Source of the DNA: an uncultured Gemmatimonadales bacterium
GTDB lineage: Bacteria; Gemmatimonadota; Gemmatimonadetes; Gemmatimonadales; Gemmatimonadaceae
Length of the DNA: 64,000 nucleotides
Assembly (NCBI GenBank): GCA_963851265.1
Contig: CAWKNZ010000010.1
Span: 32,001 to 96,000, forward strand
Reading direction: 5' to 3'
The number at the start of each line of letters is the position of its first letter. The stretch's first letter is position 1. Made by a program: the position numbers. Of this stretch, positions 42,001-51,000 are shown in pieces.

Positions 42001-45000
42001 CACCGCGAGCCGCGGCGAGATCCTCTGCCTGCTCGACTCCGACGACGTGTTCTTTCCGACGAAGGTCGCGCGCGTGGTCGAGGTGTTCGAGGAGCACGCG
42101 GAGGTCGCGTGGATGAAGCACGCGCTCCAGGTCGCCGACGGGCGTCTGCGTCCGGTTGGCGGGCTCACGCCGCCGATCGCGAAGTCGCGCGTACTGCGCC
42201 CGCGCCCGAGTGCCGCGCTCGAGGACAAGACCCGCTTCGTCGTGTCGTCCGGCGTGTCGGTTCGGCGATCGACCGCGGAGCGCTACCTCCCGATTCCGCC
42301 GGAGCACCTCGCCGAGTGGCGCTTCTGCGCCGACGCATACGTCGGTTTCTGGAGCAGCGTGTACGGCGCCTCGTACGAACTCGCCGAGCCGCTCGGCTAC
42401 TACCGGCGCGAGGATTATCAGCGCGTGCTCACCGACGACGACCTCGTGCTCTGGCTGGAGCGGCAAAACACGCTCGAGACGCGCTTCGCGCGGATGTGGT
42501 CGGAGCACACGGGGCGCGCCGTCCTCGGCTCGGACGTGCGGAAGCATCACTTGATCATCGACACCCTTCGCGGCGCCCCGTTGTTGGCCGGCGCGCGACG
42601 CCGCGAGCTCCTCGCGGGACTCGTCGACCTCTCCCGGATCACACGCGCCGAGCCCGTGCTCGCGGCGCGGCAGGCAGTCGGGCTGCTCGTTGCGTTCGGC
42701 GCTCCGCGCGCCTGGATCGCGCGCCTCTGCCGCGTGCTCGGTGTCGAGCACGCGACGGGCGGCCCACCCGCGAAATCGGGCGAGCGTCCCGCCGTGCCTG
42801 TCAACAGCCTGCATCACTTCACGTGAGTCGAGCCCGGCGCCTCGACGCGCCTCTGGTCGTCGCAGCGGGCGGCGCGATGACCGTGGGTGCCGTGACCGCG
42901 GTCGCGCCCCCGGCCGGACTCGCGGCTGCCGCCGGCGCGCTCGGGCTCACGCTCGTGTTTTCTAACGTCGCGGAGTTCACGCGGCGTGCGATCGCGCTCC
43001 TCGGCTTCACCCTGACCGGGTACGCATTCCTCGGTAAGGGTTTCGCGTACCTCGGTGCGCCACCGCTCTTCATCGGCGAGATCGCGCTCACCGCGATGCT
43101 GCTCGCGGCGCTCCTCCGAGGTGCATGGGGACCCGTCGTGCGCTCGCCGGTGGTCTACGCGCTCGTCGCGTTTGGGCTCTGGGGCGCGAAGCAGACCGTG
43201 CCCTACTGGTCCACCGCCGGGATCGTCGCCCTGCGCGACGCGGTGCTCTGGGGATACGGCGCGTTCGTGATCACGGTGGCGGCGTTGTTCGCCCGCCGCG
43301 ACACGATGGAGGGCGCGATCCGGGCGTACGGCCGCTACTTCATCTGGCTACCGATCTGGATGCCGTTCTACGGCATCGTCGCCCGGGTCGCGGGCGCGTC
43401 GTCGCCGATCATGCCGGGGTCCGACGTTCCCCTGCTCTACTTCAAGCCCGGCGATGCGGCCGTGCACCTCGCCGGCATCGCGGCATTCGTGCTCCTCGGT
43501 CTCGCGGACACCGTCGGCAGCGAGCGGTCGCCGCTCGAGGCGGCGGCGTGGCGCCCCTGGGCGTGGTGGACGCTCTGGTTCGGCGGAATGGCGGTGGCGG
43601 CGTCCGCCTCGCGCGGCGGCTTTCTCGCGGCGGCGCTCGCCGTCGCGCTCTCGGTCGCCCTGGGCCTGTCACGGCGCCGGCGCGTCGCGTGGTGGCGACC
43701 CGCCGTGACGGCGATGGTCGTCGGCACCGTGTTCGTCGCCGCCAACGTCGACATCGATGTCGGACTGCCGCGCAAGATCTCGTCGCGGCAGTTCGTGTCG
43801 AACGTCCTCAGCATCGGCAGCTCGCACAACGCGGACATCGACCTCGCCGGCACCGTCGAGTGGCGGCTCGCGTGGTGGGACGGCATCCGCAACTACACCC
43901 TGCACGGGCCATACTACTGGAACGGCAAGGGCTTCGGCGTGAACCTCTCGGAGGACGACGGGTTCCGCACGTCCGGCGGTCTCGGCGAGGCGCCCAACCG
44001 CAACCCGCACAGCATCCACTACAACGTCCTCGCGCGCATGGGGGTGCCGGGAGCGGTGCTGTGGGCCGTGCTGCAGCTGACGTTCGTCGCTTCGATGGTC
44101 GCCGCCTACGTGCGCGCGCGCCGCCGCGGCTGGGACTGGTGGGAGCGGGTCAACATCTGGATTCTCGCCTACTGGCTGGCGCTCGTCGTGAACGGGTCGT
44201 TCGACGTGTTCATCGAGGGGCCGCAGGGCGGCATCTGGTTCTGGTCGGTGATCGGGCTCGGCGTGGCGGCGCTCGACGCGCAGCGCCGCCACGCCCGGGC
44301 GTCAGGCGCCCGGCCGGTCTCCGCGCCCGGTCACGGCGCGGGCGCCATCGCACCCGACGTCGTGCGCGTCGCGGCCGTGCCGCTCGCGTCGACGCCGTAC
44401 GCGCGCCACTCGGACCATCGGCGGTAGTCCCCGGCCCAGTTGTAGGGACGGGGGTTCTGCCCGAGGGTGTACGTGTTCCGCTCGAATCGGTTGTTGCGCG
44501 TGTAGATGGTGCTGTCGACATCGGACACCGCGCCGGCGCTGCGCGCCCACTCCCACGTCGTCCCCACGTCAATGGTGTTGTCGTGCACGTAGACGTTCTG
44601 CACGAGGTACTGGCCGTAGGCGCCGCCGCCGCGCGCCTGCTGAACGAGCGCGATCCCCGTCGCGTTGTCGCGGAGCGTGTTGCCGTAGACCTCGACGTTC
44701 GGCGACGCGTGGACGCCGATGCCCGCGCCCCAGAGCCAGTAGTTCTTGCGCACGTCCTGCTGCCCGTTCCCGACGAGCGTGTTGTTGCGGATCACGCAGC
44801 CCGGCCCGTTGGTCTCGTGCGCGATGCCCTCGCGCACGTTGTACTCGACGCGGTTGCCTTCGTAGAGCACGTCGCGGTTGTCGATGTCGGTCCACAGGCC
44901 GACGCCGCCGTTGTGGTGGCTGTAGTTGTTTCGCACCGCCGCCCAGCGGGTCTTCACGAGCTTCCCGCCCCCGCCCTCGAAGTCCATGTTCGAAGCCGTG

Positions 45001-48000: not shown

Positions 48001-51000
48001 TGGCCCGCGCTCGCGTTCGCGCTCACGCACGGCGTCACGCGGCGGTTCGGCGTGGCCGCCGGCGTGCTCGCGCTTACGTTAGGCGCCGCCCCGGCGCTGG
48101 GCGCGCCGGTCAACGTCATCGCCGTCTTCCGCGACTACGGCGTGATCGGGCTCGGCTGCGCGCTCGCCCTCGTCGTCTTCGACGACCGGACCCGGGGCGC
48201 AGTGGCGGGGCTGGCGCGGGGGTGGGTGCCGCTCGTCGCGATCGCCGCGGTCGCCCTGAGCCGAGGCGACGTCTTAGTCGTCGGCGTCGCCACCGCCCTC
48301 GCCCTGCCGGCGCTCGTCGTTCAGGCGGGCCGCGTCTCCGGCGCACTCGCGTGCGGCCCGCTCGTGTGGCTCGGGCAGCGTTCGTACGGCGTGTACCTCG
48401 TGCATCAACTGACGCTGGGCATCGCGCGCAAGTTCGTCCGCGTCCCAGCGGGCGACGCGAACGAGTTCCTGACCTTCGTCGTCGGTCTCGCGCTCACCAT
48501 TCCTGTCGTCGCGGTGCTCTACCGCGCCGTCGAGCGGCCACTCATCGGCGTGGGACGACGCCTCGGCCAGCGGCGGGCACGTGCCGCGGCGACGCCCGAC
48601 GTTCCGCTTGCCTCGATGCCGGCGTCGGTTCCATCGGTCTGAACGACTACGCGGCCCACTCGCCGGGATGGCGAGCGGGCCGCGTCGTTCGGGCCGGTTC
48701 CGGGCTCAGCGCCGCGCGCCGGTCACGGCCGCGTCCACGGCGTGAGCCGCGTGGACTACATCACGGCGCGTTGCGGTAGAACGTGCTGTTCGTGTCCATG
48801 CCGAGCCCCTGCCACTGCGGGTCCGTCTTCCAGCCCTGGAACTCGAAGCCCGGGGAGACGTTCGCGGCGATGCGGTGCAGGTAGTAGATGTTGTGCACGA
48901 AGCGGTTATTCCGGCCGTTGAAGATACCCGAGCCGCCGTCGTCCTCGACGAGCCCCGCGGCGACGTCCGCATGGGTCGGCGAGTAGCCCGTTTGCGGGGT
49001 CGTCTGCGTGATCGTGTTGTCGTGCACGTAGAGGTTCTGCACGAGGTATGCGCCGTACGGACCCGATCCCCGGCTCTGCTGAATGCCGGTGATGCCGTTG
49101 AAGTTACCGGACACGGTGTTGCCGTAGATCTCGACGTTGGGCGACGCCGCGATGCCGATGCCCGCGTTCCACAGCCACGCGTTGCCGCGAGGGTCGCGCC
49201 AGCCGTTGTTGGTGACCGTGTTGTTCCGGATCACGGCGTCGTAGCTCTTCTCGCGGAAGATCCCTTCGCACGCGTTGTTGTCGACGCGGTTGTTCTCGAT
49301 GAGGGTGTGGATGTTGCCCTCGTCGGTCCAGAGGCCCACGCCCTGGTTGTCGTGCACGTAATTGCCGCGGATGACCAGGCTGTCGGTGAGCGTCCACTTG
49401 GTGCCGCCCGACTCGAAGTTGAGGTCGCCCGTGCGGCTGTAGTTGCCCCACGCGATCTCGTTGTTCTCCACGAGCACGTAGTTACCCGCGCCCGAGATGT
49501 TCGAGACGTAGTTGTGGTGCACGTTGTTGTTCGTGACGCGCATGCGGTCGCCGACACGGATGCCGAAGTAGCCGCTGTAGCTCACCTCGTTGCTGTCGAC
49601 CACCCAGCCCACGGTCGCGTTGCCCGGGGCACTACCGCCGCTGATCGCGCCGTCCTGGAACGGGGGGGCGTAGTTGGTGATCTTCATCCCGCGGATGGTG
49701 ACGTTGTTCACCCAACCGGTGCCCGCGTAGCCGCGGAATGCCCACTGCGTCCGCCCCTGGCCGTCGAGCACCGTGCCGGGCTCGCCGTGGAACACGTCCC
49801 CGGCTTTCGGGATCACGGTCTGCTGCACGTGCGTCCCCGACTTCAGGATGAACGTGGTGCCGGCCGGCGCCGCGTTCACGGCCGCCTGGATGCTCTGCCC
49901 TGGGTACACCGGCGTGCCGACCAGCACCGGGGCCGGCGGCGGCGCAGCGATGCCCGTACCACCGGTGGTGTTGGCCCACTTCTGATTGCTGCCGCCGCCG
50001 CACGACCAGATCTGCAGTGGGGTGCCGTTCGACGTGCCGAAGTTCGTGGCGTCGAGGCACATGCCGTTGACACCCTTGATCTCGCCGGCCGCCGAAGCGG
50101 TCCACAGCTGGCTCGGCGCGCCCGTACAAGGCCAGATCATCACCGGCGTGCCGTTCGCGCTCAGACCGCCCGACGTGTCGAGGCACATCGTGCCGCCATA
50201 GACGCGGATGGTCTTGTCGCTCTGCCAGGTCCACTGCTGGTTGACGCCGCCGCTGCAGTTCCACAGCTGGAGACCGGCGCCGGCGCTCTGGCTGATGTTG
50301 ACGACGTCCATGCACTGGCCGGACGCGGCAGCGCTGGAGATCGACCCGGCCGTGCCGGTGTTGGGCGTCAGGCTGTAGGCCGGCGCTACTGTGCTGCCGG
50401 TCGGGGCGGTGGCGAGCGTGTGGTCGGAGCACGCCGCACCGCCGAGGGCGAGCACGGCGACCGTTGCTGCACGAGACAACTGCATTCCGAACTTCTCCTG
50501 CTTAGGGCCTTCGGTGGGGACCGTCCGGCAGCTCGACCAGCATGGCCCCCGTCCGCCTGGAACGGGGGTGGTAGCTTCGAAGCTTTGCGACCCCGACTTT
50601 CGCCGGGTGTGCCTTTGTCGCGGCCTTCCGATGTGCGGAGGCCCTACGACTGCGCCGTCCAGGTGCGTCTTGCGGGGACGGCTGGAGCCTACCCGGGCCG
50701 GTGCCCTCCGCGAAGCGGGCAGATTTGCGCGATTGTGAGCGCAATCACCGATTACGCGGCGTCGCTGATACGGCGTTCTACCCTCAGTGACCGGAAGCTG
50801 CCCGGTGCGTCTTCCGCAGTTTGCGCCGGTCGACCGCGTCAGCGGACGGCCGAAGTCGCGCCGTCGCACGATGCGCCCGTGCCCGCGCGCGCGGGACGGG
50901 GCGTACGAACATATAGTATCGCTTCAGAACCATACCCGCGGAATGCGGTGTCGCGCGCGAAGCACGCGTCGGCGTACCTGCGCAGGATGCGCGCTTCCGT

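Follow-up and report, generated by a model that had tools for sequence, protein, structure and literature searches.

In Vibrio cholerae, the gene for the matrix polysaccharide lyase RbmB neighbors matrix genes, and its product acts on the exopolysaccharide (EPS) of the cell itself; the gene is not known to have a riboswitch. Among the c-di-GMP-I riboswitches that one source covers are several located before surface- or glycan-related genes, namely, Vc1 (gbpA), Vc2 (tfoX-like) and the chitinase and fimbrial leaders of Aeromonas hydrophila (PMC6366702). In the account of C. difficile given there, the class I c-di-GMP riboswitch of zmpI (PPEP-1) directly and negatively regulates a secreted enzyme that clears material from the surface or matrix and goes up when the signal falls, and is opposed to the class II switches of the adhesins that PPEP-1 releases (PMC6366702). 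Here, we describe an EPS locus of a soil Gemmatimonadota bacterium in which class I aptamers directly precede genes for putative polysaccharide-active lipoproteins, a pairing that points to signal-controlled remodeling of the cell's own matrix.

The genome of this uncultured Gemmatimonadales bacterium (94% complete) contains exactly four matches to RF01051, at the places named in the initial annotation: two on contig C10 and one each at C2:535513-535612 (plus strand) and C2:355656-355761 (minus strand). The C10 pair, A and B, are the two c-di-GMP-I aptamers found with Rfam in the window, that is, the entire 64-kb stretch of DNA analyzed here; both are on the minus strand and score 63-72 bits, the RF01051 gathering score being 35 bits (Table 1). 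At the sole junction position that separates the two consensus sequences, aptamer A has A instead of G (GCAAAG in the window vs GCGAAg in RF03167); G at position 11 of the model and the A of GCAAAGC speak for canonical c-di-GMP-I aptamers. Judging from their sequences, A and B are most likely canonical c-di-GMP-I riboswitches, each in the 5' leader of one gene, with c-di-GMP as the presumed ligand; the genome has 23 GGDEF matches. Three P1 pairs beyond the Rfam match form in 83, 85 and 71% of 48 aptamers, compared with 46, 49 and 39% across loci, and none of 300 shuffles was as high. The four genes had been placed 21, 25, 39 and 81 nt from their aptamers; the closeness stands but, remeasured from the end of the RF01051 match to the start codon, the distances are 24 nt for gene A, 38 nt for gene B, and 17 and 20 nt for the two C2 genes. 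The 81-nt gap of g00670 resulted from a later start call, which would delete the n-region of its signal peptide.

Table 1. Features of the two riboswitch-associated genes and their surroundings (positions in the window)
Feature	Position	Strand	Description
EPS biosynthesis/export genes	31754..44427	+	Pfam, ORFs: Bac_transf, deacetylase/DUF3473/GT2, Poly_export, Wzz-GNVR-kinase, WecG, flippase, GT2, Wzy; ORF starts approximate
Gene A	44331..45917	-	528-aa lipoprotein; Big_2-like domain at residues ~60-140; right-handed beta-helix at 143-528
Leader of gene A, aptamer to ATG	45918..45940	-	begins with the P1 3' strand (3 nt); AGGUC (45925-45929) is the presumed ribosome-binding region
c-di-GMP-I aptamer A	45941..46039	-	RF03167, 65.1 bits; RF01051, 72 bits
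Upstream hairpin A (anti-P1)	46034..46057	-	predicted to sequester aptamer nt 1-6 (CCGCGA); local fold -11.1 kcal/mol
GT9 heptosyltransferase-like gene and Acyl_transf_3 gene	46067..48639	+	between A and B
Gene B	48761..50485	-	574-aa lipoprotein; two ricin-type lectin domains; beta-helix belonging to the family seen in A
Leader of gene B	50486..50523	-	repeat of the hairpin 3' arm at 50504-50514; SD AGGAG at 50495-50499
c-di-GMP-I aptamer B	50524..50623	-	RF01051, 63 bits; own model R1, 80.8 bits
Upstream hairpin B (anti-P1)	50617..50650	-	predicted to sequester aptamer nt 1-7; local fold -17.4 kcal/mol
PMT_2-type membrane glycosyltransferase gene	50839..52572	-	same strand, upstream of switch B, 215-nt gap

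As originally proposed, all four aptamers precede genes for lipoprotein-type secreted proteins with carbohydrate-enzyme folds. The signals of A and B read MRQRIF...LLVVAAAC and ...LALGGAAC, respectively; Pfam recognizes Beta_helix in A and two Ricin_B domains plus Beta_helix in B, in agreement with the first description, and the two paralogs are 39-45% identical. The Wzy ORF and gene A are convergent, and their 3' ends overlap by ~97 nt. On C2, g00670 has neighbors encoding exosortase EpsH, DUF3485, GT4, GT2, PMT_2 and Wzy, whereas only Wzi, an M23 peptidase and TonB are encoded within ±10 kb of g00524; therefore, three of the four genes, rather than all four as had been claimed, are located inside biosynthesis loci. 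The window also contains a hexuronate catabolism cluster (20904-27821; KDPG aldolase, a mannitol_dh family gene, UxaA, UxaC, ROK).

The pairing of riboswitch and lipoprotein gene recurs in relatives: aptamers are present in 30 of 41 related genomes, and 46 of the 72 proteins encoded downstream of them are lipoprotein-type. This lineage-wide riboswitch-lipoprotein pairing is new here. The notion that the switches are devoted to such enzymes does not cover the whole lineage because relatives' aptamers of this class also precede genes for Big_2 or ricin lipoproteins, peptidases, STAS proteins and signaling proteins, as well as GH39-like and PF14099 lyase genes. We surveyed the gene-A family at 72 loci from one-per-species genomes and found an aptamer 12-26 nt upstream in six (four Gemmatimonadota, one Actinobacteria MAG and one Dehalococcoidia MAG); this direct placement in several phyla is likewise new. 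At two more loci, the aptamer is just downstream and serves the next lipoprotein gene. Among seven of these eight aptamer-associated loci that were scanned for neighbors (L097, on a 5.8-kb contig, was left out), GT, export or PMT_2 genes adjoin five (L098, L103, L126, L128 and L155); in L126, there is an ortholog-like ricin plus beta-helix gene beside PMT_2, without an aptamer.

The AF2 model of the beta-helix enzyme (pLDDT 87.5) is closest to AlgE6 (Z 36.1) and AlgE4 (Z 35.8), with rmsd of 2.6-2.9 over 325-330 aligned residues, followed by tailspike depolymerases and PL6 lyases (Z 31-33) and, further down, AlgG (Z 30), RbmB (Z 29.5) and the adhesin PfbA (Z 28.7). The family profile matches AlgE4 with E 7.9e-5, and the invariant D344 (the Asp of WxD) aligns to AlgE4 residue 178. 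Across 43 diverse family sequences, 32 columns are invariant, and conserved charged residues, E314 (90% or more), K319, D344 and E368, lie on consecutive turns; fusions to lectin or CBM modules (ricin, Big_2, the CBM6-type PF03422 and PF18099) are common. According to these models, the domain would represent a family without a name, with AlgE-type polyuronate C5-epimerase/lyase modules as the nearest solved relatives. Because these modules rank first and depolymerases and PL6 lyases second, A and B are predicted, by fold, to be polysaccharide-active.

The domain shared by g00524 and g00670 (29% identity over ~350 aa, with a third, aptamer-free copy on C4 at 66% identity) has no Pfam match at E <= 5, as noted at the outset. 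The AF2 model of this C2 domain (pLDDT 93.3) is an (alpha/alpha)6 barrel, and the fold matches of the initial annotation recur: Foldseek retrieved 2fv0 (E 1.6e-4) and 1vd5 (E 2.3e-4), then 4q88, 4xuv and 5noa. The proposed proximity to GH88/GH105 survives insofar as these families rank first (Z 22.7-22.2), but AGE-type epimerases (Z 21.7-21.3) are tied with them. Thus, what remains of the initial annotation's polysaccharide-cleaving enzymes is polysaccharide activity predicted by fold, be it cleavage or epimerization, given that epimerases are the closest relatives of the beta-helix domain and tie for the C2 domain.

Just 5' of each aptamer, a conserved hairpin, also new here, is predicted to sequester the 5' strand of P1; hairpin A contains the genome-wide word CGTTAGGC, and the upstream hairpin may lie partly outside the transcript. 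This hairpin is the MFE state in both leaders, and enforcing P1 costs +8.7 kcal/mol in A and +5.1 kcal/mol in B. In 36 of 48 class-1 leaders, upstream sequence occupies at least three of aptamer nt 2-6 by pairing, and flank complementarity is locus-specific (own-locus mean of -17.3 vs -14.6 kcal/mol across loci; 0 of 5000 permutations as strong). Enforcing P1 raises the pairing between SD and upstream flank from 0.28 to 0.49 (mean, 39 leaders). In leader A, positions -16 to -8 then pair with the released 5' arm, in the longer construct only; the averaged SD accessibility is nearly flat (0.60 vs 0.61), and the duplex of the 5' arm with the SD is weak (-7.0 kcal/mol). In leader B, the partner of the released arm is the repeat that precedes the SD, and the SD pairing predicted in the whole-leader fold is the same with or without P1. 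Four terminator-like sites were detected in 44000-51200, none on the minus strand, where the A and B leaders are; therefore, control is probably translational. In these models, the A switch and those of most relatives look like OFF switches.

Taken together, these results suggest, with a probability of roughly one half, that translational riboswitches, OFF-type in the case of A, control A and B, lipid-anchored exported enzymes with a right-handed beta-helix as the catalytic domain. Interleaved as their genes are with the Wzx/Wzy machinery of one EPS locus, the enzymes would work on the polymer of that locus outside the cytoplasm, cutting or epimerizing it. In the ligand-free state, the hairpin would hold the P1 5' strand; c-di-GMP would lock P1 and free the 5' arm of the hairpin, which would then pair downstream. 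For gene A and most relatives, the freed arm would pair with the ribosome-binding region, and therefore high c-di-GMP would cut enzyme production; the enzyme would go up as c-di-GMP goes down, which fits a matrix-releasing activity. For gene B, the partner would be the repeat rather than the SD itself, and the switch could be of either sense.

An unlikely alternative is that A and B are polymer-modifying enzymes, such as C5-epimerases like AlgE or AlgG, that are needed during EPS production and are turned ON by c-di-GMP together with synthesis. The top structure and profile matches and the similarity to AlgG are compatible with this; so is leader B, where, in a separate comparison, SD accessibility slightly increased, from 0.44 to 0.55, with P1 enforced, and the freed arm pairs with sequence otherwise adjoining the SD hairpin. 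Moreover, a sister family has leaders of similar Big_2 lipoprotein genes in which the aptamer is combined with a terminator competing with the aptamer 3' strand, an ON design, so that the switch sense is not uniform in the lineage. However, the DPH tripeptide, the core of the AlgE/AlgG catalytic motif, is present in neither A nor B, the family having FE-x-GG-x-K at that turn; no UDP-sugar dehydrogenase is encoded on C10, and thus the locus has no sign of a uronic-acid polymer; and P1 formation favors anti-SD to SD pairing in most relatives' leaders.

It is rather improbable that A and B serve in foraging on polysaccharides of foreign origin, such as polyuronates of plants, algae or microbes, with c-di-GMP tying them to surface-attached life and the place in an EPS locus being uninformative on the substrate. 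The common lectin/CBM fusions, the hexuronate cluster, the position of g00524 and the C4 paralog outside EPS biosynthesis loci, and the GH39-like, PF14099 lyase and peptidase genes following relatives' aptamers would all suit foraging, but A, B and g00670 sit among genes for GT, Wzy and PMT_2 proteins, similar neighbors recur in five of the seven scanned loci of other genomes, and Pfam analysis of the neighborhood detected neither SusC/D-like nor transporter genes adjoining A or B. Finally, a non-catalytic role of A and B as surface adhesins or lectins on a beta-helix scaffold, which the PfbA match, the two ricin domains of B and the c-di-GMP-I riboswitches before adhesin genes mentioned in PMC6366702 could suggest, is highly doubtful, given that PfbA ranks well below the enzymes and that the invariant columns, including the four charged positions, suit an active site better than a scaffold.

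Under the preferred reading, that of c-di-GMP-controlled enzymes acting on the cell's own matrix, the parallels with known systems are partial. The C2 domain resembles GH88/GH105 unsaturated uronyl hydrolases (1vd5, 3wiw, 4xuv) in the predicted barrel, over ~290 residues, although identity is 10-14% and AGE-type epimerases are within 1 Z unit. A and B share the fold of the A-modules of the C5-epimerases (and epimerase/lyases) AlgE4, AlgE6 and AlgE7 (2pyg, 5lw3, 8ja4) at Z 36 and 21-22% identity but have, besides the missing motif, no RTX-type R-modules, being instead lipoproteins with Big_2 or ricin modules. RbmB (9ozl/9ozd) and PL6 lyases (Z 31.5) are right-handed beta-helices as well, but the similarity is lower than to AlgE, and Chondroitinas_B does not match A or B at E <= 0.001. 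Vc1, Vc2 and the A. hydrophila leaders, as presented in PMC6366702, share the aptamer class and its position ahead of genes for secreted or surface proteins but belong to another phylum and other target families, and here the P1 competitor is 5' of the aptamer. Unlike zmpI, which encodes a protease in a Firmicute, the Gemmatimonadota EPS locus encodes putatively glycan-active beta-helix lipoproteins behind terminator-free leaders; like zmpI, it places a c-di-GMP riboswitch, here of predicted sense, directly before the gene for a secreted enzyme that would act on the surface or matrix.

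Within the window (G000:C10:32001-96000; G+C content, 73%), aptamers A and B, the c-di-GMP-I aptamers of the beta-helix lipoprotein genes A and B (g03628 and g03631), represent two of the four RF01051 matches (72, 67.6, 63 and 47.4 bits) detected in a genome-wide search; all four lie at the positions reported in the initial annotation and above the gathering score of 35 bits. Both window aptamers contain a GAAA loop, of the GNRA tetraloop type, in the first hairpin, and both carry the G of model position 11, the A of GCAAAGC and the C of UGCCG, which we take to correspond to the ligand-contact residues G20, A47 and C92 in Vc2 numbering. 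Model position 11 is presumably also the site that, in the Geobacter work, separates c-di-GMP from cGAMP sensors. Both window aptamers belong to a well-known riboswitch class, of which they are ordinary representatives, and are predicted to bind c-di-GMP. The cmscan label of aptamer A as the GGC variant (RF03167, c-di-GMP-I-GGC), for which the score passes the cut-off of 59, was not adopted: the junction reads GCCGCAAAG compared to the consensus GACGCGAAg, and we treated both aptamers as canonical because the junction of aptamer A carries the ordinary-class A. The passages of PMC12452182 consulted contained no definition of the GGC variant. A sequence-run search listed no RNA runs containing 44331-46330, and 0.14 of the sampled words from this interval were present in one soil DNA run.

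Features of the window and of related loci (window positions unless a genome or a locus is named)
Feature	Position	Strand	Remarks
Aptamer A	45941-46038	minus	Rfam; RF01051, 72 bits; RF03167, 65.1 bits
Aptamer B	50524-50623	minus	Rfam; RF01051, 63 bits
Gene A	44331-45917	minus	528 aa; start 24 nt past aptamer
Gene B	48761-50485	minus	574 aa; start 38 nt past aptamer
Overlap of Wzy-containing ORF (plus) and gene A (minus)	44331-44427		~97 nt; convergent 3' ends
GTTAGGC	46049-46055	minus	5' arm of anti-P1 hairpin of A
Weaker form of aCTGAtCGGCAGGATCGC block	46058-46072	minus
C10 locus	31.7-63.5 kb
Hexuronate catabolism cluster	20904-27821		18 kb away
L095 (g00670 locus)	G000:C2:526001-546000		exosortase type
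g00670	L095:9630-11729
Tandem aptamer pair	L111:4572-4862		before beta-helix gene
Three tandem aptamers	G027:C3:4761-5163	minus	before one Big_2 lipoprotein gene
Three tandem aptamers	G027:C36:1983-2385	plus	before one Big_2 lipoprotein gene
Class-2 aptamer	G027:C24:222085-222172
Class-2 aptamer	G027:C36:2297-2385

In relatives, there is also an aptamer subclass with A replacing G at alignment column 11 (CAGAGCA or AAGAGCA, compared to AAAGGCA in the window), often with GCAGAGC in place of GCAAAGC. These aptamers (L021, L024, L025, L026, L027, L047, L048, L050, L052, L054, L057 and L059) are found ahead of STAS genes and, combined with a terminator-type platform, ahead of Big_2 lipoproteins. 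The G to A replacement in column 11 is, we assume, the change that moves Geobacter GEMM-I towards cGAMP.

The products of genes A and B contain lipoprotein-type signals, LLVVAAAC (Cys24) and LGGAAC (Cys19), respectively, as recognized by a heuristic rule (n-region, hydrophobic run, lipobox cysteine). Pfam searches identified Beta_helix in A, and two copies of Ricin_B along with Beta_helix in B; a Big_2-like domain occupies about residues 80-140 of A. The two proteins, the only ones in the genome with this beta-helix domain, are 39-45% identical, the same range as previously noted. Each gene is monocistronic, A being convergent, and overlapping at the 3' end, with the Wzy ORF, and B convergent with an acyltransferase gene. 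By Pfam, the C10 locus contains Bac_transf, polysaccharide deacetylase + DUF3473 + GT2, and Poly_export, along with Wzz/GNVR/P-loop kinase, WecG, a flippase, GT2 and Wzy_C, gene A, GT9 and Acyl_transf_3, gene B, PMT_2 and two UDP-GlcNAc 2-epimerases, and also an epimerase, a methyltransferase, an aminotransferase and a further deacetylase. No UDP-sugar dehydrogenase was found in this locus, and hence nothing there suggests a uronic-acid polymer. Elsewhere in the window, a cluster for hexuronate catabolism encodes a KDPG/KHG aldolase, a mannitol_dh family oxidoreductase, an altronate/galactarate dehydratase, the UxaC glucuronate isomerase and a ROK protein.

The initial annotation placed all four riboswitches of this genome inside EPS loci. 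This holds for A, B and g00670, one of the two C2 genes located behind the other aptamers, the neighbors of which include exosortase EpsH, DUF3485, GT4, GT2, PMT_2 and Wzy, but not for the second C2 gene, g00524, for which Wzi, an M23 peptidase and TonB are the only neighbors identified within 10 kb. The g00670 locus combines EpsH with DUF3485/EpsI, and a PMT_2 gene near the riboswitch-controlled gene is common to this locus and the C10 locus.

Among the 41 genomes of the same order, a set that takes in one unpublished genome (G011), 30 encode c-di-GMP-I aptamers, with 82 matches in total; the carriers are 20 of the 24 genomes of the same family, all 8 of one sister family and 1 of the 8 of another. 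All 82 sites were fetched, and a scored picker called a downstream ORF at 78 of these, yielding 76 distinct proteins, of which 72 are from relatives; at G017:C88:771, the pick was wrong, the true neighbor being a Big_2 lipoprotein. The start codon is located within 45 nt of the aptamer in 60 of the 78 ORFs, and a lipoprotein-type signal, by a simple rule, is present in 46 of the 72 proteins of relatives. Pfam searches with the 72 distinct downstream ORF references of relatives (74 less two duplicates from tandem aptamers) gave class counts that sum to more than 72 because the modular and catalytic classes overlap: 30 proteins with Big_2, ricin, fn3 or PKD modules, 6 with Beta_helix, 3 GH39-like proteins, one PF14099 lyase, 4 peptidases (S8, M8, M15), 6 STAS proteins, two Gly_kinase proteins encoded more than 130 nt away, one each of REC-GGDEF, hybrid kinase, pilin, rhodanese, DUF4382 and a weak autotransporter match, and 20 without a Pfam match. 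With our own profiles, the catalytic domain of the gene A type was found behind aptamers only in the source genome and G003, and the (alpha/alpha)6 domain shared by the C2 genes was found behind aptamers of two relatives, G004 and G022. In relatives, the pairing of aptamer and lipoprotein is conserved, not any one fixed pair, and the general rule in this lineage is a c-di-GMP-I aptamer followed by a lipoprotein that carries glycan-binding modules and in many cases also a domain resembling an enzyme. At two loci of G027, three tandem aptamers precede a single lipoprotein gene.

Starting from the beta-helix gene, a scan of one genome per species identified 405 relatives. The best 72 of these 405 loci, which come from Gemmatimonadota, Acidobacteriota, Actinomycetota, Planctomycetota, Nitrospirales, Dehalococcoidia and Gammaproteobacteria, were searched for aptamers using our own covariance model built from 51 aptamers. 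In 6 of these 72 loci, an aptamer is located 12-26 nt upstream of the family member; four of these are from Gemmatimonadota (L097, L103, L109 and L111; in L111, the aptamers form a tandem pair), and the others come from an Actinobacteria MAG (L128) and a Dehalococcoidia MAG (L155). Two further loci, L098 and L126, have the aptamer immediately 3' of the family member, where it serves the next lipoprotein gene, and for the L126 gene closest to the arrangement of B, our model found no aptamer. Glycosyltransferase, export or PMT_2 neighbors were identified in 5 of the 7 aptamer loci scanned (L098, L103, L126, L128 and L155; the eighth, L097, a 5.8-kb contig, was left out); the neighbors comprise sulfotransferases and GT4 in L155, among others, and WecG in L128. 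In both L155 and L128, the Shine-Dalgarno (SD) sequence begins directly after the aptamer 3' end; mis-binning of these MAG contigs is possible. The link between the enzyme family, the polysaccharide locus and the aptamer is thus recurrent, not obligatory.

The AF2 model of gene A (pLDDT 87.5, 43-row alignment) most closely matches, in both Foldseek and VIA-align, the A-modules of the mannuronan C5-epimerases AlgE4 and AlgE6 (Z 36.1 and 35.8, rmsd 2.9 and 2.6 Å, 330 and 325 residues aligned, 21-22% identity). Further matches are phage tailspike depolymerases (Z 32.8), an AlgE7-like epimerase/lyase (Z 31.7), PL6 lyases (Z 31.5), AlgG (Z 30) and the Vibrio VPS lyase RbmB (Z 29.5). The family profile finds AlgE4 by sequence (E 7.9e-5); when gene A was searched by sequence against PDB chains, no match fell below E 0.15, and NCBIfam gave repeat-level matches only. 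The AlgE catalytic motif is YG(F/I)DPH(D/E). The invariant aspartate of the WxD motif, D344 of A, is aligned to AlgE4 residue 178, and the turn that corresponds to the AlgE motif, placed by offset from the profile alignment, reads FEGGGGK in A and FESGGTK in B, an instance of the family-conserved FE-x-GG-x-K located one turn before WxD, in which E314 is kept in at least 90% of the members and K319 is invariant. Compared to an AlgE-type A-module, A and B have the same right-handed beta-helix, but the DPH tripeptide is absent from both sequences and there is no Pfam RTX or HemolysinCabind match at E ≤ 0.001 that would indicate Ca-binding RTX R-modules. The likeness to PL6 (chondroitinase B/alginate lyase) is similarly one of fold, with no match to PF14592 at E ≤ 0.001. 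The model thus points to a polysaccharide-active beta-helix family with an active-site-like constellation of its own, with a predicted activity compatible with both cutting and epimerizing.

For the C2 domain, the AF2 model is an all-helical barrel (pLDDT 93.3), and the previously proposed (alpha/alpha)6 fold, nearest to UGL, GH88 and GH105, was reproduced: Foldseek retrieved the UGL structures 2fv0 (E 1.6e-4) and 1vd5 (E 2.3e-4), then GH88, GH105 and a PL. An independent all-against-all structure search placed UGL (Z 22.7) and GH105 (Z 22.2) next to cellobiose and glucose 2-epimerases (Z 21.7 and 21.3), so that, with this model, UGL/GH105 and AGE-type 2-epimerases are tied in structural score. 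No Pfam family matched at E ≤ 5, and the GH88/GH105 likeness is that of the fold. In this domain family, the 98 members occur as fusions with ricin, Big_2 or RTX modules, and none carries a functional name. In g00670, residues 253-299 weakly match, by Pfam (E 0.0015-0.003), the N-terminal RIFT barrel of PcRGLX, a PL26 exo-rhamnogalacturonan lyase; fold searches with the paralogous (alpha/alpha)6 domain also retrieved a PL26 structure, 5xq3 (Z 18.6).

The closing helix of the aptamer, P1, extends three pairs past the Rfam hit, beyond a two-base bulge. Of 48 aptamers, 83, 85 and 71% form these pairs, compared to 46, 49 and 39% after exchange of the flanks among loci. The pairs covary, occurring as G-C as well as C-G, and none of 300 shuffles matched the observed pairing. 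Directly upstream of both window aptamers is a hairpin that holds the 5' strand of P1 (anti-P1 hairpin; -11.1 kcal/mol in A, -17.4 in B), with the first six or seven aptamer bases as its 3' arm. In whole-leader folds, the anti-P1 state is the minimum, and enforcing P1 costs 8.7 kcal/mol in A and 5.1 in B, either of which could be covered by the ligand binding energy. The same arrangement is found in 36 of the 48 class-1 leaders, and the UCGC/UCGU conserved about 20 nt upstream of the aptamers is explained as the base of this hairpin. The word GTTAGGC, which forms the 5' arm of A's hairpin, has 885 + 877 copies in the genome; the G003 ortholog reads GTAAGGC at this site.

Upstream of the aptamers, sequence is conserved as the block GGCAGGATCG, 20-26 nt before many aptamers of relatives, and as aCTGAtCGGCAGGATCGC, at a fixed distance, 20-26 nt before about 14 aptamers of relatives, with a weaker form in the window. 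The UCGC end of the aCTGAtCGGCAGGATCGC block pairs with the aptamer GCGA, and the remainder may be a promoter. When tested as a general promoter word, GGCAGGATCG was found in 5-65 copies per genome in all 41 genomes, with 22 copies in the source genome, mostly in coding-looking DNA; these numbers reflect codon usage and thus say nothing for or against a promoter. No sigma-70-like promoter was found in 44000-51200.

In the same interval, all 4 terminator-like sites found are on the plus strand, with none on the minus strand; given this and the proximity of the start codons to the aptamers, control most likely acts on translation. The upstream flank complements the downstream leader of its own locus better than those of other loci (-17.3 vs -14.6 kcal/mol; 0 of 5000 permutations as strong), and many relatives have, as the 5' arm, a CCUCC-type anti-SD that perfectly matches the SD. 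Averaged over 39 leaders, SD pairing with the upstream flank increased from 0.28 to 0.49 when P1 was enforced. With the flank windows separated, the own-locus value was reached in 94 of 5000 permutations for pairing of the SD region with the far 5' arm and in 0 of 5000 for the proximal flanks; the separation is only partly clean, one control also scoring (18/5000) and the other not (2654/5000).

The simplest reading of these pairings, predicted from folds, is a two-state OFF switch, with c-di-GMP lowering expression. Without ligand, the 5' arm would be kept in the upstream hairpin, leaving the SD free; with ligand bound, the 3' arm would be taken up by P1, and the 5' arm, now free, would close on the SD. 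In leader A with P1 enforced, positions -16 to -8 pair with the freed arm; the arm-SD duplex is weak (-7.0 kcal/mol), and a shorter construct was unchanged (0.60 vs 0.61). In leader B, the partner of the freed arm is a near-copy of the hairpin 3' arm, 20-30 nt before the AUG, and the predicted SD state is the same with and without P1 enforced, so that the folds of B are compatible with either sense. Whole-leader MFE folds were not used to read a sense, as they depended too strongly on the cut points of the sequence. Many aptamers of the sister family show the ON terminator design, a stem formed from the aptamer 3' strand followed by a U-run, and therefore the sense of control is not uniform in the order. 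In such class-2 aptamers, the 3' strand GCCGCCAGC has its complement GCUGGCGGC downstream, before the U-run, so that the terminator competes with the aptamer, unlike in the window leaders.

c-di-GMP drives matrix production mostly via protein effectors, and to our knowledge, direct control of matrix-acting glycan enzymes at the RNA level is little documented; the present genome contains 23 GGDEF matches. Conceivably, although we give it only about one chance in five, the c-di-GMP riboswitches of Gemmatimonadota mark surface lipoproteins, among them two enzyme families without names, one an AlgE-like beta-helix that has an E-x4-K/WxD center and the other a UGL-like (alpha/alpha)6 barrel, which together would form a lyase and unsaturated-uronyl-hydrolase pair for turnover of the bacterium's own EPS, switched at translation by an upstream hairpin that swaps partners with P1 and the ribosome-binding site, so that a fall in c-di-GMP would lead to matrix release. 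Literature searches returned no publication joining a c-di-GMP riboswitch with Gemmatimonadetes or with a polysaccharide lyase; in the literature covered by our searches, no description was found of such switches with these target families, in this phylum or with a competing helix placed upstream. Used as labels, the riboswitches flag two uncharacterized, widespread enzyme families as c-di-GMP-regulated, matrix-related candidates and concrete targets for new EPS depolymerases or epimerases, and the leader offers a compact system to study a switch with a competing helix upstream of the aptamer. We consider this lead to two unnamed enzyme families to be of moderate interest.

If the enzymes are epimerase-like modifiers, ON would be the expected sense. 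If A is OFF, enzyme A would go up when c-di-GMP drops, which fits a matrix-releasing role. According to PMC6366702, the secreted protease ZmpI of C. difficile is under a negatively acting class I c-di-GMP switch, and the control of A, should it be OFF as predicted here from folds, would parallel that of ZmpI.
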